From a bacterium (lineage in GTDB: Bacteria > SAR324 > NAC60-12), in contig CBDBHR010000028.1 in the NCBI GenBank assembly GCA_965205865.1, forward strand, positions 277,600-341,599: a DNA stretch of 64,000 bases. Reading direction: 5' to 3'. Below are positions 44,673 through 63,931 of this stretch, piece by piece. The notes under the pieces are model-generated. The model was given only the letters and a program-made list of their open reading frames with translations, was not told the origin of the DNA and ran no database searches. Made by a program: the position numbers and the translations under genes. How positions within the stretch are numbered: the stretch's first letter is position 1; each line of letters opens with the position of its first letter.

Positions 44673-45441
44673 GGTCAGGCCGTGCGCCAGGAAAGCTGGC
44701 AAGAAATAGAGAGTGAAAGTCTCTTACTCGGTAAGGCAGTAACGACCCGCCGAGTCCCCGAGTCATGAGTGGTTATTCGCAAGGATAGGCGCTAAGCGTT
44801 GACAGGGGAGAACATAGGCTCGGTATTGAGCTCCGAAATCATAGTTTCAGGTGCTGACCTTGTAGTCTGGTGGGGAAGGCAACATCAACCGAAGGCGTTA
44901 GCGTGAGTCCCGGTCGAGCCTGGCGGAGTCAAAGACCCGGTGCATGTGTGGAAGTTTCTTGATCGGAACCTGGGAGATCCTGAAGACGACTGTCAACATT
45001 CTATTGGTAGTCGGATCGGGAAAATTAATAAATAACCCCGATATCTACGTCTTCAGGAAGTCGGACAAGTTCGTAGTAGCGATGAAGCGGCGAACAATGA
45101 GATCATTTGTAGAGAGTAATAATGCAAAGGAAATCAACGGAGCCTGTGGAGCAAAGGGACTTGGCTGAGAGGAATTCTGCTTGCCCTCCTGTGTTCGGAA
45201 CTCAGAGGCCGGTAAAATCAGAGAGCGGTTTAAGCAGGGTGCGCCAAACGGCAACGTCTGAGCGTCTGACTCGAAGCAGGAGCCGGATGCGTTAGCAGCG
45301 CATGTCCGGATCTGTACCGGAGGAATGACGAAAGGTGGCTGGAAACCACTATAAGTCAGTTCTTTACGGTGACTTTGATTAAATGAAAAGGGAGCAAAAA
45401 AACTAGACTCGTTCCTAATCAAACAATCAAAGGCCTGACCC
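44673..45441 (+). mobile_element. ~770-bp non-coding group-II-intron-like repeat, copy A
   Basis: Starts GGTCAGGCC|GUGCGCCAGGAAAGCUGGC (GUGCG, then a GAAA-tetraloop hairpin). Near the 3' end is GAGCCGGAUGCG-uuagca-GCGCAUGUCCGGAUCU, which is domain-V-like (AGC triad, 2-nt bulge). Ends ...AAAGGCCUGACC. The 9-nt termini are inverted repeats. Copies A, D and E are about 95% identical. Confidence 0.5.
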
Positions 45442-46723: not shown

Positions 46724-47664
46724 CTGACTAAGAACTTATCCTTTAATAACTTGAAAATTGGTATTTCCTGCATTATTTTTGTCATCATGTTCAACCATAA
46801 ACGCATGGAGGCTATATGGCAAAAGTACAGTCGTGGGAAGTATCTGATTCATTTTGGGCCAGAGTGGAGCCACTGATACCAAAACCCAAACGTGACCCGA
46901 ACAAGACCTACAAGCGCAAACCCGGTGGTGGTAGAAAGCCAATGCCTGCGCGCCAAATTTTCGAGGGAATTGTATATGTTTTGCGCACCGGTTGTCAATG
47001 GAGAGCCCTTCCCAAGGAAAAATATGGGAGTCCTAGTGCCATCCATGCTCATTTCATGCGTTGGAATGAAGCGGGTTTCTTTTTGTCGCTTTGGCAAGCC
47101 GGACTTGCCGAATATGATGAGATGGAAGGGATCTCCTGGAAATGGCAAAGCATAGACGGCACGACTGTCAAAGCCCCACTGGCTCAGGAAACCGTTGGTC
47201 GAAACCCGACTGACAGGGGAAAAAAAAGGGAGCAAGCGTCATTTGCTGGTTGACGGCCGTGGTGTCCCGCTGTCCCTCGTCGTAACCGGGGCGAACCGGC
47301 ATGATGTGACACAGTTGGAATTGGTCTTGGAGGAAATCGTCATTGCGCGGCCTGAGGGCATTGAACAACACCTGTGCGCAGACAAAGGCTACCACGGTGA
47401 GCCAGCATCACAGATCATTCGATCCAATGATTATGTGCCACATGTGAAAAAACGGGGTGAAGAGATTCAAGAAAAAAAAGCAAATCCCCAATACAGACCC
47501 AGAAGATGGGTCGTCGAGGTGAGCCATTCATGGTTCAACAGATTTCGCAAGATAATGGTCCGATTCGAAAAATATAATCAAACTTATCTCGCACTGCTTC
47601 AATTGGCTGCAGCTATCATAACTTACAGGAAAGTTAATGTTATTTAAGGATAAGTTCTAAGTCA
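46724..47664 (+). mobile_element. IS5-family (IS427/IS1031 group) insertion sequence, apparently intact, with programmed frameshift
   Basis: 26-bp imperfect TIRs: TGACTAAGAACTTATCCTTTAATAAC on the left, and the reverse complement TGACTTAGAACTTATCCTTAAATAAC on the right. orfA is 46816-47253 and orfB is 47195-47647; they overlap at the slippery run GGGGAAAAAAAAGGG (47217-47231). OrfB holds the DDE region (...HLLVDGRGVPLSLVVTGANRHD...CADKGYHG...). Confidence 0.8.
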
Positions 47665-48611: not shown

Positions 48612-50292
48612 TCAGGCCGTGCGCCAGGAAAGCTGGCAAGAAATAGAGAGTGAAAGTCTCTTACTCGGTAAGGCAGTAACGACCCGCCGAGTCCCCGAGT
48701 CATGAGTGGTTATTCGCAAGGATAGGCGCTAAGCGTTGACAGGGGAGAACATAGGCTCGGTATTGAGCTCCGAAATCATAGTTTCAGGCGCTGACCTTGT
48801 GGTCTGGTGGGGAAGGCAATATCAACCGAAGGCGTTAGCGTGAGTCCCGGCTGAGCCTGGCGGAGTCAAAGACCCGGTGCATGTGTGGAAGTTTCTTGAT
48901 CGGAACCTGGGAGATCCTGAAGACGACTGTCAACATTCTATTGGTAGTCGGATCGGGAAAATTAATAAATAACCCCGATATCTACGTCTTCAGGAAGTCG
49001 GACGAGTTCGTAGTGCGCACTGGGCAGCGCATGATTCAGGTGGGTTCAAGTTCCACTCAGCCTGAGATCCCAGGCTGATATCCAAAAGCGGGGGTAATGC
49101 CTCGCTGGCCGGAATGTTTACCAGGGCGCCATCCTGGGCGCTTTAAGCACAATGGGAGGTCGAAAGGGCCAAATGCACCGAAGTGAACTTCCGGAGGACA
49201 GGGTGTCCACCGTGAGGTGGAATCTGAAGGGTTTGCGGAGAATCACCGGGTCGTAGTCAAGGAGGCTACTCCAGAGACGAACCGGTCGGCCAACAGCAGG
49301 GAATGGTTGAGCTTGCACTATGATGGCGAAAGCAGTTGGATTCCCCCCTGCAATACCAAGGTGTGTGCGGACGACACGGTGAGGAAGAATCATGAGTGAC
49401 CCCAGGAGGACTCAGGGCGTTCTTAGGTGGCACTAGGATAAGGGACCCTATAAGCGAAAGCGAAGTGGAAACCGAAGCGTGTTGAGTAGTCGGACCATCG
49501 AATAGTACCTGAAGCGTAGTGAGAGCTACGTGACCGAGGGATCGGCAGCAGAGTGAGCTGGGGAAGGCGATGGGCAGAGAAGGTTGGAATGAGAAAGGAA
49601 GTCAGATGAGTAAGGACAGTGAGGTGGAAAGTTCGGTAAGTGAAAGACCCAGAACTCATGGCCCGAGGAGACTGGCTGACTGGATCAATCTAACGGGAGC
49701 AAAGAAGGTTCACTCCTTAGTGGACAAGATTTACAAGAAGCTCTCCCCGAAACAAGATTATATGGGGAGTATCGGTTAGTAAATCTGATCTCACTAATTC
49801 CTTCGATTGGTCCCTTCGGCAAACGGACTTCTCTGTGAAAGCCGGATGCGGGAAAACTGCACGTCCGGTTTGGGCGGCGGACGGTGGCTAGCGGAAACGC
49901 GCCTCCTCCGACCCGACAGCGATGAAGCGGCGAACAATGAGATCATTTGTAGAGAGTAACAACGCAAAGGAAATCAACGGAGCCTGTGGAGCAAAGGGAC
50001 TTGGCTGAGAGGAATTCTGCTTGCCTTCCTGTGTTCGGAACTCAGAGGCCGGTAAAATCAGAGAGCGGTTTAAGCAGGGTGCGCCAAACGGCGAATCCGA
50101 ATCAACGTTTGAGCGTCTGACTCGAAGCAGGAGCCGGATGCGTTAGCAGCGCACGTCCGGATCTGTACCGGAGGAATGACGAAAGGTGGCTGGAAACCAC
50201 TATAAGTCAGTTCTTTACGGTGACTTTGATTAAATGAAAAGGGAGCAAAAAAACTAGACTCGTTCTTAATCAAATAATCAAAGGCCTGACCC
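48612..50292 (+). mobile_element. 770-bp repeat copy B/C interrupted by a nested ~905-bp group II intron
   Basis: 48612-49012 matches the 5' 400 bp of copy A. 49921-50292 matches the 3' 370 bp. The intervening 49013-49917 is unique to this copy. Confidence 0.6.
49013..49917 (+). ncRNA. Group II intron (ORF-degenerate) inserted into repeat copy B
   Basis: Starts GUGCGCAC. Near the 3' end is AAGCCGGAUGCGG-gaaaa-CUGCAC-GUCCGGUUU. This gives a domain V with AGC triad, AC bulge and G-U wobble at the triad G, close to the consensus GAGCCGUAUGCGAUGAAAGUCGCACGUACGGUUC. A domain-VI-like helix with a bulged A follows. An internal 69-aa ORF (49570-49779, ...RRLADWINLTGAKKVHSLVDKIYKK...) resembles the N-terminus of intron-encoded reverse transcriptases. 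Boundaries are uncertain to about 5 nt. Confidence 0.6.
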
Positions 50293-52460: not shown

Positions 52461-52835
52461 TAGCTAAGTAATCCCGTAGAACTTTATCACAATATCACGC
52501 AATTTTCTGTGAATTGTTCCCAAGTATTAAGAAAAATGTAGGATCCCAGTCATTTCTTTACGATCTGGCACATATATTGCCTTGTTGACAACTCCTGTAT
52601 AATATTCTGCATTTGTAAACCCTCAAAAGGATAAAATATAAGGATCACAAAAAACTATAAGGGGTGACATGACAGAAAAAAAAATTACAAAAATTAAAAT
52701 TCATAATATGCCATTCGGAGGATTTTGGATTGATCCCAAAGACATCATCTTAAGTGATGAAGGTCAAAAAATAATCAAGCAAATAGCAAAAATATCTATT
52801 AAAAAAACTAAAGATAAATCTGAAGATTAAAACAA

Positions 52836-53534
52836 ATGGGATTCGGATTATTTTTTCTCTCTTTGCTGGGAGGATACATATTCAATAGATGGTGCAAACT
52901 AACCTCTTACTTCATTTATCGAGATACCGGTTACAATCTACTTTTCAAATCAGCATCAACTGGTGCTATATTAGCAATTATTTCTTACTTCATAATTCAA
53001 GGCTTCAATTTATCTCAATATAATATTTATGAATTAGAAAGAAACTTAGACATACCCAAATATACAATACTCTCTCTTCTATCATTTTTATTAGGACCAA
53101 TTTTATCAACACTCATCAATTCATTGAGTAAAATTAAAGAGATTGAAAAAAAAGCAATCTACAAATCCGAAAATTGGTTAGAAATATTATTCAGAGAATC
53201 TTCTGAAAATGGATTATTAATTGAGGTAACTCTAGAAAACGAGAAAGTATATGTGGGATGGATAATAAAAACTACCGATCCACGATTTAACAGACAATAT
53301 TTTCAAATGCAGCTCATCTTAAGTGGATACCGAAACGATGAACTCAAAATAGAATTCACCACCAATTATGCGAGTGTCTACAACAAATTAAATAAGTTGA
53401 TAGAAGAACAAAAAATACAAATCAATGAACAAATTCCAGACTTTAAAATAATTATCTCTATCTCATCCTTAAGAAGCGCCAGACCGTTCAACTACGAAAT
53501 ATACGAATTATTTGAAAATTTACATAATGAATAA
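52836..53534 (+). CDS. Hypothetical membrane protein (AT-rich island)
   Basis: 232 aa with 3-4 N-terminal TM helices and a soluble C-terminal domain. GC is about 30%. It is preceded by an unlisted 53-aa ORF at 52669-52830 (MTEKKITKIKIHNMPFGGFWIDPKDIILSDEGQKIIKQIAKISIKKTKDKSED). Confidence 0.35.
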   Translation: MGFGLFFLSLLGGYIFNRWCKLTSYFIYRDTGYNLLFKSASTGAILAIISYFIIQGFNLSQYNIYELERNLDIPKYTILSLLSFLLGPILSTLINSLSKIKEIEKKAIYKSENWLEILFRESSENGLLIEVTLENEKVYVGWIIKTTDPRFNRQYFQMQLILSGYRNDELKIEFTTNYASVYNKLNKLIEEQKIQINEQIPDFKIIISISSLRSARPFNYEIYELFENLHNE

Positions 53535-53639
53535 ATCCCTAAATCTCCAACCGGCCGAAGCCATATAAGCCGTGAATTTCAAACTAACTCGACGCCTTCA
53601 AAAAGGCGCCATTGCAACCATAAATGTGAGCAATGTGCT

Positions 53640-54050
53640 ATGAAAAAGATTATTTTTTGTTTAACTATATTTGTGTGTTTTAATTTATTCTTTTCACCAG
53701 TTGTTTTATCGAACCCTAAAAAATTATGCTCAGATGTACTAGAGAGTCTTGGTTATAAACTGTTGTCCTATTCTTTTAAAAAAAAAGGTCTCGTCGCAAG
53801 AGAAAGACATACATTTAATGGCGATTTGTTTTGTTACATAGATAGTGGGGGGAATATTCACTCCATAAAAGACAATAAAATTTTAATTGCCGAGGATGGA
53901 TTCTATGGACAATCTGCTCTAGAAGAACGAGATATATTAGATGCCGCACGAGAAGTTGCCATTAAACTGGCAAAGGGAAAGATCAACCAGGAATATAAGA
54001 CAAAATTACAAGTTGTGAGAAAGAAGTCCAGACCTGAAAAATGGGATTAA
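53640..54050 (+). CDS. Hypothetical secreted protein
   Basis: Signal peptide MKKIIFCLTIFVCFNLFFSPVVLS. 136 aa. No family recognised. Confidence 0.35.
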   Translation: MKKIIFCLTIFVCFNLFFSPVVLSNPKKLCSDVLESLGYKLLSYSFKKKGLVARERHTFNGDLFCYIDSGGNIHSIKDNKILIAEDGFYGQSALEERDILDAAREVAIKLAKGKINQEYKTKLQVVRKKSRPEKWD

Positions 54051-54178
54051 TATTATGGGAGCATCACAAAAAATATCCACCGCATATCGTAGGTGCTATG
54101 CGGTTCAGATAAGCCCCTAAATACATCATTCCGTTAAATTTTAACCTTTTTCAATTTGCGAGATATATTAGATGCAAG

Positions 54179-54391
54179 ATGTCTCGGAAAACGCGTTTGT
54201 ACGACCCTGGTACGCTTTGTCATGTGCTTCGAGGCAATGGGGACCAACGTATTTTTTTCGATGACAGCGACTCTCGTAGCCTTTATCAGTCTTCGATTGG
54301 AAATCTGCAACAATTCGGGAAGTGGCAAATGCTCTCAATCGAGATGATGCTACTTTCAGTCGTGGAGTGCATAAGTTGTGAGAAAGATTGA
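54179..54391 (+). pseudogene. REP-associated tyrosine transposase (RAYT / IS200-like Y1) N-terminal fragment
   Basis: MSRKTRLYDPGTLCHVLRGNGDQRIFFDDSDSRSLYQ matches the RAYT N-terminus (R.PR...PG.lyHV..RGN.rq.IF.DD.D). The ORF ends after 70 aa, before the catalytic Tyr region. A REP-like hairpin ACCGCATA-tcgtaggtgc-TATGCGGT is at 54078-54104, directly upstream. Confidence 0.5.
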
Positions 54392-54728
54392 AGGAATCCA
54401 CAAATCTCCAAAAGCGGTTAAAAAAACTTAACCTAAAAATGTTTTCTTAAATTCGCAAACTTGCAAGCCTGACCCCCTCACAAAAATGCAGTTTTCAAAC
54501 CATTCTCAACCATTTCCCAATCATACTCGATTCCATCTATTTGATTAAGAGAGTTTCCCTGACTTTTAATCTTGTCATGAGAATCGACGGAATTAAATGG
54601 ATTGATGCAAACAATTGAGCCTACACCAGCAAGTATATGTTGAATAATAGCATTCATATTTGTCTCCAAAGTTACTGAGTCTTATCTAACGATTTTTGAA
54701 GATAGTCAATTTAACCTATTAATATTTA

Positions 54729-55292
54729 GTGATGGAAGCCATGCTCATTGATCATCAACGTGAAAAATTGATTAATCTAATCATATACTTTGCTACCCAT
54801 ACTAAACGATTTCATAAAGTAAAGTTATTCAAACTTCTATATTTTTTAGATTTTGAACATTATTCTTTAACAGGCCGAAATGTCACTGGATTAGATTACT
54901 ATGCTTGGGATAATGGGCCATGTCCAAAAGATCTACATGAAGAAATTGATGATCCTCGATCAGATATGAAAGAGAGTATCACATTTAGTTCAATTTCATA
55001 CAAGAATGGAGATAGGTTAGATATCAAGCCACTTAAAAAATTTGACCCAAAACATTTCTCAAAGAGAGAGCTTCGCATTTTAGAAGGACTTGCAGAAGAA
55101 TATAAAAATACCTTAGCAAAAGATATGATTGAAGAGACTCACTTAGAGAATCTTCCTTGGCATCAAATTTATAATGTGCAGAAAAATAAATATGCGCATA
55201 TCCCATATGAACTTACACTCAAAAGGCAAGAACAAGAGGAGATGAAACAATATATCGAGGGAACCCGTGATTTTTGGCAGGGATATGAATGA
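54729..55292 (+). CDS. Panacea-domain (DUF4065, SocA-like) putative antitoxin
   Basis: ...KVKLFKLLYFLDFEHYSLTGRNVTGLDYYAWDNGPCPKDLHEEI... matches the K.LYF.D...........G......Y.AW..GPV core of the Panacea domain. Confidence 0.6.
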   Translation: MMEAMLIDHQREKLINLIIYFATHTKRFHKVKLFKLLYFLDFEHYSLTGRNVTGLDYYAWDNGPCPKDLHEEIDDPRSDMKESITFSSISYKNGDRLDIKPLKKFDPKHFSKRELRILEGLAEEYKNTLAKDMIEETHLENLPWHQIYNVQKNKYAHIPYELTLKRQEQEEMKQYIEGTRDFWQGYE

Positions 55293-55705
55293 CACCGGGT
55301 TCAATTCTACTCGATAGAAAATATGCTTTCCAGTCAGGAGATTCTGGCCAGAAATTTGTTATTGTACTGAATGATGGAAGTGATTATCCTTACATTATAG
55401 TAAGAACTACCTCTCAACAAAAAAATAGAGGAACAATCTTTGGATGTCAGTCAAACGATAGATTCCCCAATTTTTTCCTTCCTCAAGGCAGTTGTTATTT
55501 TTCTAAACATACTTGGATACAATTAGAGGATTTTCGTGAGTTTCACATTGGTGACTTGCTTGATAAATTAAAGGCAGGTGAAATATTCAGAGCAGCAGAG
55601 CTTCCAAAAGACCTCACTATTAAGCTCTTAAGATGTGCTATATCATGTGATGATATTAGCCATGCACAAGCAGGAATTCTTCAAAAAATTCTAGCTATAC
55701 TGTGA
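55289..55705 (+). CDS. Putative toxin partner of the Panacea-domain protein (unassigned; weak PemK/MazF-like beta pattern)
   Basis: Its start codon overlaps the upstream stop (ATGA), implying translational coupling. 138 aa. No confident family match. Confidence 0.35.
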   Translation: MTPGSILLDRKYAFQSGDSGQKFVIVLNDGSDYPYIIVRTTSQQKNRGTIFGCQSNDRFPNFFLPQGSCYFSKHTWIQLEDFREFHIGDLLDKLKAGEIFRAAELPKDLTIKLLRCAISCDDISHAQAGILQKILAIL

Positions 55706-55918
55706 ACGGATGTTTTCTTCATTTTTTGTCATCCTGTGGGAACCGAATGATCTTCTTGATTCCCATGAGTTTCTTGCTTAGGTAGCCCCCTTAGCTCAGA
55801 ATGACAGGTTTTTTGAAAAGTGAAATTTAAACCCGTTCAGAGTATAATCTTGAACAGTAATTTGAAATGTAATCAGAACAAAACGCTTCATCTGACTTAC
55901 ACCAAGAATATAGAAAGG

Positions 55919-56698
55919 GGTCAGGCTGTGCGCCAGGAAAGCTGGCAAGAAATAGAGAGTGAAAGTCTCTTACTCGGTAAGGCAGTAACGACCCGCCGAG
56001 TCCCCGAGTCATGAGTGGTTATTCGCAAGGATAGGCGCTAAGCGTTGACAGGGGAGAACATAGGCTCGGTATTGAGCTCCGAAATCATAGTTTCAAGTGC
56101 TGACCTTGTAGTCTGGTGGGGAAGGCAACATCAACCGAAGGCGTTAGCGTGAGTCCCGGTCGAGCCTGGCGGAGTCAAAGACCCGGCGCATGTGTGGAAG
56201 TTTCTTGATCGGAACCTGGGAGATCCTGAAGACGACTGTCAACATTCTATTGGTAGTCGGATCGGGAAAATTAATAAATAACCCCGATATCTACGTCTTC
56301 AGGAAGTCGGACAAGTTCGTAGTAGCGATGAAGCGGCGAACAATGAGATCATTTGTAGAGAGTAACAATGCAAAGGAAATCAACGGAGCCTGTGGAGCAA
56401 AGGGACTTGGCTGAGAGGAATTCTGCTTGCCCTCCTGTGTTCGGAACTCAGAGGCCGGTAAAATCAGAGAGCGGTTCAAGCAGGGTGCGCCAAACGGCAA
56501 TCCGAATCAACGTTTGAGCGTCTGACTCGAAGCAGGAGCCGGATGCGTTAGCAGCGCACGTCCGGATCTGTACCGGAGGAATGACGAAAGGTGGCTGGAA
56601 ACCACTATAAATCAGTTCTTTACGGTGACTTTGATTAAATGAAAAGGGAGCAAAAAACTGGACTCGTTCCTAATCAAATAATTAAAGGCCTGACCCCT
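55919..56698 (+). mobile_element. ~770-bp group-II-intron-like repeat, copy D
   Basis: Full-length copy, same orientation. It ends 28 bp upstream of the start codon of the 56727 lipoprotein gene. The 12-bp CTGACCCCTTTT is tandemly duplicated at the 3' junction. Confidence 0.5.
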
Positions 56699-56726
56699 TT
56701 TCTGACCCCTTTTTAGGAGAGCAGTT

Positions 56727-59330: not shown

Positions 59331-61154
59331 CCGAAAAGGGTTTCGAAAATAGTAAATGTAACCAATTTGATTCTATTTGATTCTCTATTTGATTCAATAT
59401 GACGAGAAAACGATTTTTTTGTTTTTTATTCGCCCACAGCACAGTTTTTATAGGGAAAAAATCTTTTTTGGACATACTTTCCTCGCCCCTGCTCATATTT
59501 CACACTCCCCCATTGAATATTCAGGCCGCTTGTTTGAGTTGTCTTTTTTTCAACTCAATCATTTTGCAAAAATTATAGGTTAATGCTTTTTCCAGCAACT
59601 CTGCCCGAACGTTTTCAATCCCTCTGCGCATAACTTGTCCGAAATGGAAACGATGCTTAAGATGAAACATCAACGACTCTGCAGCAGATCTTCCATTTCG
59701 TGATTCCAAATAGATTTCACTTTCCCATTCTTCAATCGGGGTCATCTTTTTTCCCTTTGCCCCACTAATACTAAAAACCTTAACGCCTTTGCCCATCCAC
59801 TTTTCTCTGATCGCCTGATTGGCATATCCATCATCAAGGCTCACTTCAGAGGGAATGGTGATGGTGCATCGCAAATGTTCAACAAGGGCAGGGTCGAGTT
59901 GCCCTGAATCAGCAGCATTGCCCTCCGGAGTAATTAACACGGAAATAAAACCATTTCCGCTCCTTCCTAATTGAGGCTTATATCCGATAAGCGCTTCTCG
60001 ATCTCCCTTTTGAATATAAGCCGAGCTCTGATCGGAAAGACTCAATACTTTCTCAGTAGAAGGAACCTTCTTTTCTTCAAAAACTCTTTGATGACAGTAG
60101 ATGATTACCCGTTGCAAATTAGAAATATCTTCATTCATCATTTCAATGAGGCGAATCAAACGCGTTTTCCGAGAAGGGGGGAGAAGAGCTTTTTGGGCAC
60201 GGATATCCACCTTTGCCATTTCTTTTAAAAATTTCCCATGAGCGCTTTGAGCTTTCTTCAATAGGGTTTTGTAATGTTTTTTTCGCTTCGTTTTACTGTC
60301 CTTTTTACCTGTCTCAAAAGCCATCATCTTAGAGAGCTTATTCATCTCCTTGATGAGGAAATCAAAATTTCTTTCACTGATCTCAGCGATTCCAAATGTA
60401 TCAAGGGAACGCCCTCGATGGTAGCTTCGCTCCACGAGACGAGTCAATATCGACGAATCAGTAGGCCAAGCTGTATTTCCTTTTACAGAGGTGCTATCCA
60501 GTTTTAAAATATCAAAATCGTCCAACTCTTCATCGAGAACCATTCGAATTTGAGCATCGAAAATAAACTGTCTGCTCTCGTTGCTGACAGCATTGACATT
60601 ATCAAGGATTGTACTCGCTCCCGGCATTTTCAATCCACGGTTGAGCAGAAGCAGATGCAGTGTGATTGACTCTGAAAGAAATATTTGGGCCGTTTGGGAT
60701 TTGATACTTCCTAAATATCCCCGAATCATCATAAAAAGGTAGACTAAAAAAGCCGACATCCGAGGACACCCTATTTCCAGCCTCAGTTCTTCCGGCTTCA
60801 ATTCCTCATCTTCTACGGGAAGATGAGGAAGCCATGGATTCCGGGCTTCCTGCCATCGTTTATCCTCTAAACGCTCTTTCTTTTTATTTCTTGCGTATTT
60901 CTCCAAATCCTGTTCAATTTTGTCCAATATCTCCGGCTCTCGCTCAGACAATTGATCAAGTTCTGATAAGAAATTTTCAAATTCTGTATCAGGAGCGCTT
61001 AAAATAAGATGTTTTTCTGCTCGAATGAATGGTTTCATTTTGGGTGCCATAATTCTTAATATTGAAGTTATTCACAGTTATTTCAATGAATTATGGCACT
61101 TTTTAACCTCAAGTTTAAAGATATAATTCTAAAAAATACCTTTTCGGCTAGGAT
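59323..61154 (-). mobile_element. IS copy 2 (1.83 kb), intact; DDE transposase of IS4 superfamily (IS1634-like?)
   Basis: TIRs GACCCTAGCCGAAAAGG / GATCCTAGCCGAAAAGG(rc). The transposase CDS 59521-61050 (509 aa) carries candidate DDE-K residues (LKLDSTSV; SLDDGYANQ; RSAAESLMFHLK). TAGCTA sits on both sides. Confidence 0.75.
59521..61050 (-). CDS. DDE transposase (509 aa)
   Basis: Intact ORF, 100% identical to 61360-62889 apart from one substitution (I15F). Motifs as listed for IS copy 2 (59323-61154). Confidence 0.8.
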   Translation of the reverse strand: MAPKMKPFIRAEKHLILSAPDTEFENFLSELDQLSEREPEILDKIEQDLEKYARNKKKERLEDKRWQEARNPWLPHLPVEDEELKPEELRLEIGCPRMSAFLVYLFMMIRGYLGSIKSQTAQIFLSESITLHLLLLNRGLKMPGASTILDNVNAVSNESRQFIFDAQIRMVLDEELDDFDILKLDSTSVKGNTAWPTDSSILTRLVERSYHRGRSLDTFGIAEISERNFDFLIKEMNKLSKMMAFETGKKDSKTKRKKHYKTLLKKAQSAHGKFLKEMAKVDIRAQKALLPPSRKTRLIRLIEMMNEDISNLQRVIIYCHQRVFEEKKVPSTEKVLSLSDQSSAYIQKGDREALIGYKPQLGRSGNGFISVLITPEGNAADSGQLDPALVEHLRCTITIPSEVSLDDGYANQAIREKWMGKGVKVFSISGAKGKKMTPIEEWESEIYLESRNGRSAAESLMFHLKHRFHFGQVMRRGIENVRAELLEKALTYNFCKMIELKKRQLKQAA

Positions 61155-61160
61155 CTAGCT

Positions 61161-62994
61161 AGACCCTAGCCGAAAAGGGTTTCGAAAATAGTAAATGTAA
61201 CCAATTTGATTCTATTTGATTCTCTATTTGATTCAATATGACGAGAAAACGATTTTTTTGTTTTTTATTCGCCCACAGCACAGTTTTTATAGGGAAAAAA
61301 TCTTTTTTGGACATACTTTCCTCGCTCCTGCTCATATTTCACACTCCCCCATTGAATATTCAGGCCGCTTGTTTGAGTTGTCTTTTTTTCAACTCAATCA
61401 TTTTGCAAAAATTATAGGTTAATGCTTTTTCCAGCAACTCTGCCCGAACGTTTTCAATCCCTCTGCGCATAACTTGTCCGAAATGGAAACGATGCTTAAG
61501 ATGAAACATCAACGACTCTGCAGCAGATCTTCCATTTCGTGATTCCAAATAGATTTCACTTTCCCATTCTTCAATCGGGGTCATCTTTTTTCCCTTTGCC
61601 CCACTAATACTAAAAACCTTAACGCCTTTGCCCATCCACTTTTCTCTGATCGCCTGATTGGCATATCCATCATCAAGGCTCACTTCAGAGGGAATGGTGA
61701 TGGTGCATCGCAAATGTTCAACAAGGGCAGGGTCGAGTTGCCCTGAATCAGCAGCATTGCCCTCCGGAGTAATTAACACGGAAATAAAACCATTTCCGCT
61801 CCTTCCTAATTGAGGCTTATATCCGATAAGCGCTTCTCGATCTCCCTTTTGAATATAAGCCGAGCTCTGATCGGAAAGACTCAATACTTTCTCAGTAGAA
61901 GGAACCTTCTTTTCTTCAAAAACTCTTTGATGACAGTAGATGATTACCCGTTGCAAATTAGAAATATCTTCATTCATCATTTCAATGAGGCGAATCAAAC
62001 GCGTTTTCCGAGAAGGGGGGAGAAGAGCTTTTTGGGCACGGATATCCACCTTTGCCATTTCTTTTAAAAATTTCCCATGAGCGCTTTGAGCTTTCTTCAA
62101 TAGGGTTTTGTAATGTTTTTTTCGCTTCGTTTTACTGTCCTTTTTACCTGTCTCAAAAGCCATCATCTTAGAGAGCTTATTCATCTCCTTGATGAGGAAA
62201 TCAAAATTTCTTTCACTGATCTCAGCGATTCCAAATGTATCAAGGGAACGCCCTCGATGGTAGCTTCGCTCCACGAGACGAGTCAATATCGACGAATCAG
62301 TAGGCCAAGCTGTATTTCCTTTTACAGAGGTGCTATCCAGTTTTAAAATATCAAAATCGTCCAACTCTTCATCGAGAACCATTCGAATTTGAGCATCGAA
62401 AATAAACTGTCTGCTCTCGTTGCTGACAGCATTGACATTATCAAGGATTGTACTCGCTCCCGGCATTTTCAATCCACGGTTGAGCAGAAGCAGATGCAGT
62501 GTGATTGACTCTGAAAGAAATATTTGGGCCGTTTGGGATTTGATACTTCCTAAATATCCCCGAATCATCATAAAAAGGTAGACTAAAAAAGCCGACATCC
62601 GAGGACACCCTATTTCCAGCCTCAGTTCTTCCGGCTTCAATTCCTCATCTTCCACGGGAAGATGAGGAAGCCATGGATTCCGGGCTTCCTGCCATCGTTT
62701 ATCCTCTAAACGCTCTTTCTTTTTATTTCTTGCGTATTTCTCCAAATCCTGTTCAATTTTGTCCAATATCTCCGGCTCTCGCTCAGACAATTGATCAAGT
62801 TCTGATAAGAAATTTTCAAATTCTGTATCAGGAGCGCTTAAAAAAAGATGTTTTTCTGCTCGAATGAATGGTTTCATTTTGGGTGCCATAATTCTTAATA
62901 TTGAAGTTATTCACAGTGATTTCAATGAATTATGGCACTTTTTAACCTCAAGTTTAAAGATATAATTCTAAAAAATACCTTTTCGGCTAGGATC
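61161..62994 (-). mobile_element. IS copy 3, intact, in direct tandem with copy 2 (6-bp TAGCTA spacer)
   Basis: Identical TIRs. The right flank is GAGCTA. It truncates an upstream-facing gene whose 3' remnant (...HFAADYMLDWHYREFDEHQRLVVNAAVEKHYGLNPGS*) lies at 62998-63111. Confidence 0.75.
61360..62889 (-). CDS. DDE transposase (509 aa), second identical copy
   Basis: Same as 59521-61050. Confidence 0.8.
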   Translation of the reverse strand: MAPKMKPFIRAEKHLFLSAPDTEFENFLSELDQLSEREPEILDKIEQDLEKYARNKKKERLEDKRWQEARNPWLPHLPVEDEELKPEELRLEIGCPRMSAFLVYLFMMIRGYLGSIKSQTAQIFLSESITLHLLLLNRGLKMPGASTILDNVNAVSNESRQFIFDAQIRMVLDEELDDFDILKLDSTSVKGNTAWPTDSSILTRLVERSYHRGRSLDTFGIAEISERNFDFLIKEMNKLSKMMAFETGKKDSKTKRKKHYKTLLKKAQSAHGKFLKEMAKVDIRAQKALLPPSRKTRLIRLIEMMNEDISNLQRVIIYCHQRVFEEKKVPSTEKVLSLSDQSSAYIQKGDREALIGYKPQLGRSGNGFISVLITPEGNAADSGQLDPALVEHLRCTITIPSEVSLDDGYANQAIREKWMGKGVKVFSISGAKGKKMTPIEEWESEIYLESRNGRSAAESLMFHLKHRFHFGQVMRRGIENVRAELLEKALTYNFCKMIELKKRQLKQAA

Positions 62995-63164: not shown

Positions 63165-63931
63165 ACAGGCCGTGCGCCAGGAAAGCTGGCAAGAAATAGA
63201 GAGTGAAAGTCTCTTACTCGGTAAGGCAGTAACGACCCGCCGAGTCCCCGAGTCATGAGTGGTTATTCGCAAGGATAGGCGCTAAGCGTTGACAGGGGAG
63301 AACATAGGCTCGGTATTGAGCTCCGAAATCATAGTTTCAGGCGCTGACCTTGTGGTCTGGTGGGGAAGGCAATATCAACCGAAGGCGTTAGCGTGAGTCT
63401 CGGCTGAGCCTGGCGCAGTCAAAGACCCGGTGCATGTGTGGAAGTTTCTTGATCGGAACCTGGGAGATCCTGAAGACGACTGTCAACATTCTATTGGTAG
63501 TCGGATCGGGAAAATTAATAAATAACCCCGATATCTACGTCTTCAGGAAGTCGGACAAGTTCGTAGTAGCGATGAAGCGGCGAACAATGAGATCATTTGC
63601 AGAGAGTAACAATGCAAAGGAAATCAACGGAGCCTGTGGAGCAAAAGGACTTGGCTGAGAGGAATTCTGCTTGCCCTCCTGTGTTCGGAACTCAGAGGCC
63701 GGTAAAATCAGAGAGCGGTTTAAGCAGGGTGCGCCAAACGGCAACGTTTGAGCGTCTGACTCGAAGCAGGAGCCGGATGCGTTAGCAGCGCACGTCCGGA
63801 TCTGTACCGGAGGAATGACGAAAGGTGGCTGGAAACCACTATAAGTCAGTTTTTTACGGTGACTTTGATTAAATGAAAAGGGAGCAAAAAAATTGGACTC
63901 GTTCCTAATCAAATAATCAATGGCCTGACCC
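63165..63931 (+). mobile_element. ~770-bp group-II-intron-like repeat, copy E
   Basis: Full-length copy with the same orientation and termini (..ACAGGCC|GUGCGCC ... AAUGGCCUGACC). Confidence 0.5.

Follow-up and report, generated by a model that had tools for sequence, protein, structure and literature searches.

What does a Panacea protein hold in check when the gene that overlaps its own encodes a product without a named family? The question is raised by two genes, here called panA and panT, at positions 54,729 to 55,705 of a 64,000-nucleotide stretch of DNA (the window) on contig CBDBHR010000028.1, assembly GCA_965205865.1, from a SAR324 bacterium of the lineage NAC60-12. An earlier note, made from the sequence alone, described an upstream Panacea (DUF4065) antitoxin candidate translationally coupled to a 138-residue partner that matched no family and that might be a new toxin family. 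Our analysis points to a PanAT-class module, a type II toxin–antitoxin (TA) pair whose standalone Panacea protein would sequester a MazF-like ribonuclease (RNase), and we place the probability of this reading at roughly 0.72.

The upstream gene encodes a standalone Panacea protein

The longest open reading frame (ORF) upstream of panT runs from 54729 to 55292 on the plus strand and would encode 187 residues from a GTG codon, with a further ATG at 54732. Alignment of 27 PanA homologues encoded beside relatives of the 138-residue protein placed their N-termini at the motif M[LI]I.H.REKL, which corresponds to the ATG at window position 54741, and the panA gene calls in sister genomes are 183 residues long (contigs L036 and L038) or 186 residues long (L037). 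Because the homologue N-termini and the sister-genome gene calls concur, we take panA to be 54741–55292 (plus strand, 183 residues); judged from these alignments, the true start is almost certainly ATG 54741 and not GTG 54729.

PanA matches the Pfam model PF13274 (SocA_Panacea) across the entire profile (positions 1–113 of 113, residues 33–145) with 72 bits and an E value of 1e-19. This score bears out the Panacea/DUF4065 antitoxin candidate of the earlier note, and it lies well clear of the poor match to DUF4065 hidden Markov models (HMMs) that the note had named as a result that would undo its proposal (72 bits against a cut-off of 25.7). The NCBIfam SocA equivalog NF047745 gives a weak co-linear match over residues 16–173, scoring 31 bits against a cut-off of 190, and PanA is therefore a Panacea protein and not SocA. 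The Panacea domain stands alone, with no additional N-terminal domain. In the 27-homologue alignment the C-terminal tail has a constant length and an IPYEY motif, but conservation does not extend to its acidic and aromatic end; a MazE-like tail was considered as the main mechanism and was dropped, as that end varies among the homologues.

The panA stop codon, TGA, is shared with the start of panT (55289–55705, plus strand). The two genes are thus joined by a 4-nucleotide ATGA start/stop overlap at 55289–55292 on the plus strand (...GGATATGAATGACACC...), an arrangement suggestive of translational coupling and read directly from the sequence, as the earlier note had done.

PanT is predicted to adopt a MazF/PemK fold

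For the 138-residue PanT, searches of Pfam, NCBIfam and PADLOC gave nothing significant. A word-indexed search with PanT returned 22 relatives, all unannotated, and an HMM search run exhaustively over 1.84 billion cluster representatives (50% clustering) returned 682 relatives at E ≤ 1e-3, of which 371 reach E ≤ 1e-10; almost all are ~130–150 residues long. The representatives P0030 (312 residues), P0034 (202 residues) and P0094 (182 residues) carry C-terminal extensions of 45–175 residues past the toxin domain and could be fusions or read-through gene calls. Residue conservation was assessed in a set of 127 diverse relatives that are 25–60% identical to the window protein. Pfam searches with these 127 sequences gave scattered chance matches only and no family, PemK_toxin (PF02452) included; even at E ≤ 1, PF02452 matched neither the window PanT nor any of the 127 relatives. 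A search of the family profile against the sequences of the Protein Data Bank (PDB) likewise gave a chance match only, to ribosomal protein L31 (E = 0.8).

The earlier note had proposed structure prediction for the 138-residue protein. The AlphaFold2 model, computed from a 22-sequence alignment, has a mean predicted local distance difference test score (pLDDT) of 93.2, a predicted template modelling score of 0.87 and no low-confidence segment. In a Foldseek search of the PDB with this model, ranks 1–40 are all MazF with the exception of rank 35, the ToxN-type toxin CptN, so that MazF accounts for 39 of the top 40 matches. These ranks have probabilities of 0.89–1.00 and target-normalised template modelling (TM) scores of 0.38–0.70, with the top-ranked MazF structures at a probability of 1.0, and the matched MazF proteins come from S. 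aureus, B. subtilis, B. cereus/anthracis, M. tuberculosis (MazF-mt1 and mt3), D. radiodurans and E. coli. CcdB structures are absent from the top 50 PDB matches. A search of BFVD with the same model gave PemK/MazF proteins at rank 1 and at several other of the best matches. On the strength of this model we are confident in assigning PanT, as a very divergent member, to the MazF/PemK fold of the CcdB/MazF superfamily, an SH3-like β-barrel with a C-terminal helix. The earlier note had held that a housekeeping domain in the partner would count against its proposal; what the model indicates is a classical toxin fold, remote but recognisable.

Profile comparisons with hhalign used B. subtilis, E. 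coli and S. aureus MazF, M. tuberculosis MazF6 and Kid as references, each verified against PDB chains (full-length matches, ~2 bits per residue). The PanT family aligned to single MazF sequences with P values of 0.003 and 0.07 and to a five-sequence MazF/Kid profile with P values of 4e-4 (global) and 9e-4 (local), co-linear over 108–113 columns. The catalytic residues of MazF are an arginine (R25 in B. subtilis MazF, R29 in E. coli MazF) and a threonine (T48 and T52, respectively), as seen in MazF–RNA structures such as 4mdx. PanT T41, within a TTS motif, falls on the catalytic threonine in every hhalign alignment. K22 falls on the catalytic arginine in the single-sequence alignments and lies one residue off in the five-sequence profile alignment. 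Compared with MazF, PanT has a 9-residue insertion after the threonine motif, bearing the conserved G52-C53-Q54 and P60-N61-F62, and an additional C-terminal helix (residues 125–137).

Near-invariant positions among the 127 relatives are G4, K22 (125 sequences), L27, T41 (125), S42 (118 serine and 9 threonine), G52, C53 (124), W76 (123), C116 (126) and D122 (120). The same pattern is seen in the 26 intact genomic panT copies, where K22, T41, C53, W76 and C116 are constant, S42 differs in two copies and D122 in one.

The Panacea–PanT pairing is conserved across phyla

The earlier note had asked whether homologues of the 138-residue protein co-occur with Panacea genes, and they do. Of 35 loci with a relative of the protein, 25 belong to GTDB species representatives, a set that does not include the window's own genome, and 10 to metagenome contigs. 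A PanA homologue lies immediately upstream on the same strand in 34, and the junction is the exact 4-nucleotide overlap in 28 of these 34 two-gene loci. The exception, L035, holds only a 40-residue toxin remnant. The hosts span Acidobacteriota, Gamma-, Alpha- and Betaproteobacteria, Ignavibacteria and ‘Lambdaproteobacteria’, and include Methylococcales, Thiotrichaceae, Crenothrix, Methylophaga, Methylobacterium, Devosia, Duganella and Nitrosovibrio. The neighbours of the loci are unrelated to one another and include a polysaccharide cluster, genes for a major facilitator superfamily transporter and methylmalonyl-CoA mutase, and helicase and DNA polymerase genes. The pairing of the Panacea gene with this partner is far above chance, and its retention across phyla is what one would expect of a TA module.

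At two loci the toxin gene is decayed beside an intact panA. In Candidatus Onstottus arcticum (L033, 3001–3294) the toxin is cut to 97 residues while PanA has its full length of 188, and in Candidatus Thiomargarita nelsonii (L034, 3010–3210) the toxin is cut to 66 residues next to a full-length PanA of 191. These are orphaned Panacea antitoxins, the usual decay pattern of TA pairs. Across loci, PanA identity and toxin identity to the window copies are uncorrelated (r = 0.19, not significant), and this comparison is uninformative.

PanT groups with the catalogued cluster T8

The neighbourhoods of DUF4065/Panacea genes were surveyed by Kurata et al. (2022, PNAS 119:e2102212119, PMC8832971), and we compared PanT with the catalogue in their Dataset S1. 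The Paraburkholderia acidipaludis protein WP_043200799.1 (P0267 in our set) is 38% identical to the window PanT over 139 residues in BLASTP (E = 6e-33). At 90% clustering it falls together with P0226, a sequence matched by the PanT-family profile at E = 8.6e-40. In Dataset S1, WP_043200799.1 is listed as a putative Panacea-associated toxin, pT8/T8, with the gene order A|T, a spacing of -4 and a ‘noNTD’ PanA (PMC8832971). Example T8 pairs are WP_027793184.1/WP_043200799.1 of P. acidipaludis and WP_110948704.1/WP_110948703.1 of Pseudomonas bohemica, and HHpred with the P. bohemica representative gave PemK (99.66%), MazF (99.66%), EndoA (99.64%) and CcdB (99.1%) (PMC8832971). The T8 accessions do not appear in the NetFlax supplement text, and we found no later literature on cluster T8.

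Sequence comparison therefore places the window PanT in T8, already catalogued in 2022, and not in a new toxin family. The suggestion of a new family falls to the T8 homologue (38%, E = 6e-33) together with the MazF/PemK fold. The statement that the protein matches no family stands for Pfam, NCBIfam and PADLOC and fails for the fold and for the catalogued relative.

Proposed mechanism and alternatives

In the mechanism that we favour, panA and panT would be transcribed together, with translation coupled through the ATGA overlap. PanT would most likely be a sequence-specific, ribosome-independent endoribonuclease that arrests translation, in which Thr41, with Ser42, would take the place of the catalytic threonine of MazF (T48 in B. 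subtilis, T52 in E. coli) and the invariant Lys22 would sit at, or one residue from, the site of the catalytic arginine (R25/R29). The 183-residue PanA would most likely neutralise PanT by direct binding. We infer RNase activity, toxicity and neutralisation by PanA from the fold, the conserved threonine and basic residue and the validated relatives in other clusters. The module might serve in the stabilisation of a plasmid or island or in phage defence.

The relatives in question are the MazF-like PanTs of P. moraviensis (T6) and B. ruminantium (T25); both are toxic and block translation, and their PanAs neutralise them (PMC8832971). The P. moraviensis PanT:PanA complex was demonstrated by pull-down, and neutralisation by the tested PanAs was independent of ClpXP and Lon (PMC8832971). 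Ernits 2023 likewise reported that standalone Panacea antitoxins neutralise directly (PMC10440598).

Several observations weigh against this reading. T8 is a bioinformatic cluster, no member of which has been validated as a working TA pair, and the sole member assayed, Flavobacterium xanthum WP_073354223.1, was non-toxic in E. coli (PMC8832971). The MazF-like T5 PanT of Chryseobacterium bovis was toxic and was not rescued by its own PanA (PMC8832971). Our own profile–profile similarity between PanT and MazF, as estimated from the alignments, is only moderately significant. The canonical catalytic arginine is never found in the PanT family, which has lysine in 125 of 127 sequences. The model also leaves unaccounted for C53, C116, D122, the 9-residue insertion and the additional C-terminal helix, none of which has an equivalent in MazF. 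No DNA-binding domain is recognisable in PanA. Finally, a promoter and terminator scan found nothing convincing upstream of panA, no terminator and no clear operator. A candidate weak sigma-70-like promoter at 54696–54725 (plus strand; TTGAAG, 18 nucleotides, TAATAT), picked out by eye, fits at 8/12 positions and is below the scan threshold, and an imperfect inverted repeat (54703–54712/54765–54774) flanks it together with the start codon.

The same proteins could instead serve chiefly in abortive infection or phage defence, with PanA as a sensor that responds to a phage trigger by releasing or activating the MazF-like nuclease. A sensory role for the Panacea domain has been hypothesised, with TA networks tied to defence systems (Ernits 2023, PMC10440598). 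The region around the pair is variable, AT-rich and dense in mobile elements, and restriction–modification genes are neighbours elsewhere, namely a BglII-like endonuclease and MT-A70 on contig L001 and downstream methylases on L038. PADLOC, however, gave no match, the viral structural matches are merely generic PemK-like proteins and many homologues sit among ordinary metabolic genes. We regard phage defence as an unlikely principal role, and in any case it refines the best explanation rather than displacing it.

A related and similarly doubtful possibility is that T8 is a mechanistically distinct branch of the MazF fold, with another substrate or chemistry and a Panacea partner that acts as a phage-responsive sensor. 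This is suggested by the substitution of lysine for arginine, by Cys53, Cys116 and Asp122, by the 9-residue G-C-Q...P-N-F insertion and by the additional C-terminal helix. If true, the substrate might be, for example, a specific tRNA or rRNA site, and the lack of toxicity of the T8 member in E. coli would be accounted for.

Less probable still is that PanT has a MazF/CcdB fold and is not an RNase at all, acting as a CcdB-like gyrase poison, through a chemistry or on a target involving Cys53, Cys116 and Asp122, or as a non-toxic partner of PanA. The CcdB match at 99.1% in the published T8 HHpred result and the non-toxic T8 member (PMC8832971) are compatible with this, as are the family-wide replacement of the catalytic arginine by lysine and the near-invariance of C53, C116 and D122, residues that MazF does not have; Ernits 2023 also cautioned that a common fold need not imply a common function (PMC10440598). 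Yet MazF makes up 39 of the top 40 Foldseek matches with no CcdB in the top 50, the TTS motif falls on the catalytic threonine of MazF in all alignments and the validated MazF-like PanTs inhibit translation (PMC8832971). That PanT has a harmful activity is argued by its strict linkage to an antitoxin-type gene and by the loss of the toxin where PanA is kept. A SocAB-like type VI arrangement, in which PanA would be a proteolytic adaptor delivering the toxin to ClpXP with no sequestration, is highly improbable, for although SocA is the founding Panacea protein (PMC8832971) and PanA is co-linear with its model over residues 16–173, the equivalog score of 31 bits falls far short of the cut-off (190), the toxin has a predicted MazF fold and is not SocB, and ClpXP and Lon are dispensable for neutralisation by the tested PanAs, with stable PanA:PanT complexes demonstrated (PMC8832971).

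Genomic setting of the pair

The earlier note placed the pair in an AT-rich setting laden with mobile elements, and the window agrees. The guanine-plus-cytosine (GC) content of the pair, 34.1%, is lower than that of the window (45.3%) and of the next downstream genes (49.7%), and insertion sequence (IS) and intron copies lie nearby. The region around the pair is heavily rearranged by mobile elements. By blastn, a block at 53623–55707 is shared with three sister contigs (L036–L038) at ~97.6% nucleotide identity. It contains a 136-residue signal-peptide-like ORF, a Y1-transposase remnant, a small divergent ORF, panA and panT, and ends 2 nucleotides past the panT stop codon. Nearby core genes are 96.5–97% identical to those of the sister contigs; the identity of the block is comparable, and the module was therefore inherited in the lineage and not very recently acquired. 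Both genes are intact in all of the sister copies, whose alleles differ by 2 synonymous and 2 non-synonymous changes in panA and by 3 and 4, respectively, in panT, too few for an estimate of dN/dS.

The REP-associated tyrosine transposase (RAYT) fragment of the earlier note is plausible. What is left of a Y1 transposase (IS200/RAYT-like, with a helix-turn-helix of the DnaA_C type) lies at ~54179–54400, in pieces in two frames and with the catalytic core deleted: the N-terminal piece, ‘YDPGTLCHVLRGNGDQRIFFDD’, is in one frame and the C-terminal piece, ‘IREVANALNRDDATFSRGVHKL’, in another. Its intact counterpart is a 342-residue Y1_Tnp+Bac_DnaA_C gene on L038 (6443–7471), part of which is 73% identical to window 54292–54476. 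A repetitive extragenic palindromic (REP) hairpin had also been reported, and no REP-like hairpin was found in 54000–56000, the part scanned. The IS copies are real. Pfam identifies DDE_Tnp_1 transposase genes of 509 residues at 59521–61050 and 61360–62889, both on the minus strand, and a 150-residue DDE_Tnp_1 fragment at 47195–47647 on the plus strand. Because the two tandem 509-residue genes score identically in Pfam, they are taken as two IS copies ~300 bp apart.

The repeated element that adjoins the pair is a group II intron. Four matches to Rfam RF02005 (158–165 bits), which mark intron 5′ regions, are present in the window, at 44716–44938, 48653–48875, 55962–56184 and 63206–63428. A match to the domain V/VI model RF00029 (49837–49917) accompanies only the copy at 48.6–49.9 kb, which is ~1.3 kb long. 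The copy after panT (~55845–56699) is short and without an ORF, and starts ~140–200 bp past the panT stop codon. The sister contigs have several intron copies and one RVT_1 gene, and the window introns have the appearance of truncated or ORF-less derivatives of an intron with multiple copies in the lineage. The panT copies of the sister genomes run into the intron-associated repeat within their final codons (L036, 10408–10423), giving a 140-residue product that ends in ...ANLEQ. In the window and in contig L006, 137 additional bp separate the panT stop codon from the repeat (window 55706–55844), and the 138-residue product ends in ...AIL. An insertion or rearrangement of the intron or its target motif seems to have taken place directly at the 3′ end of panT.

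Upstream of the shared block, a 960-bp insertion at 52663–53622 (30.5% GC) is found only in the window, as the three sister genomes join 52662 directly to 53623. It holds ORFs at 52669–52830 (53 residues) and 52836–53534 (232 residues), neither with a Pfam match and the longer one also without an NCBIfam or PADLOC match; from its sequence, the 232-residue product appears to have N-terminal membrane segments. The insertion is an orphan cassette. The small divergent ORF of the shared block (63 residues, 54478–54669, minus strand) lies just upstream of panA, and a 74-residue gene is called at the corresponding place in the sister genomes (L036, 9145–9369, minus strand).

Comparison with known systems

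In terms of annotation, the result turns a “hypothetical protein” beside a DUF4065 gene into a module of PanA and a MazF-fold PanT of cluster T8; beyond annotation it carries little weight. T8 is far larger in metagenomes (682 representatives) than in the 2022 catalogue, which listed a few dozen RefSeq entries, and it is uncovered by Pfam, NCBIfam and PADLOC models, so a family HMM could be built and deposited. The cluster is also a well-defined experimental target, with K22, T41, C53, C116 and D122 as obvious sites for point mutants.

The closest known systems are other T8 pairs, which share with the window pair a homologous toxin, the antitoxin-then-toxin order, the -4 overlap, a ‘noNTD’ PanA and remote PemK/MazF/EndoA similarity. 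The window PanT differs as a metagenome-assembled copy that is 25–60% identical to the other relatives found. The T6 and T25 PanATs likewise have a Panacea antitoxin upstream of a small EndoA/PemK/MazF-like toxin, but their toxins belong to other sequence clusters than T8 in the clustering of Kurata 2022 (PMC8832971), and the T25 toxin is recognised by CDD as PemK_toxin whereas the T8-type family is recognised by no Pfam model. SocAB of Caulobacter crescentus, a type VI TA system, shares a Panacea-domain antitoxin with the window pair, but its SocB is unrelated to PanT. With canonical MazEF, PemIK and Kis–Kid (PF02452; PDB 4me7, 4mdx, 3nfc, 1m1f and 5hk0) the likeness lies in the toxin: the predicted fold is the same (TM 0.55–0.70, probability ~1), the order of secondary structure elements is co-linear, the catalytic threonine is aligned and a basic residue stands at or next to the arginine site. 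The antitoxins set these systems apart, as those of MazEF, PemIK and Kis–Kid are of the AbrB or ribbon–helix–helix type with a disordered C-terminal tail, whereas the antitoxin in the window is a Panacea domain.

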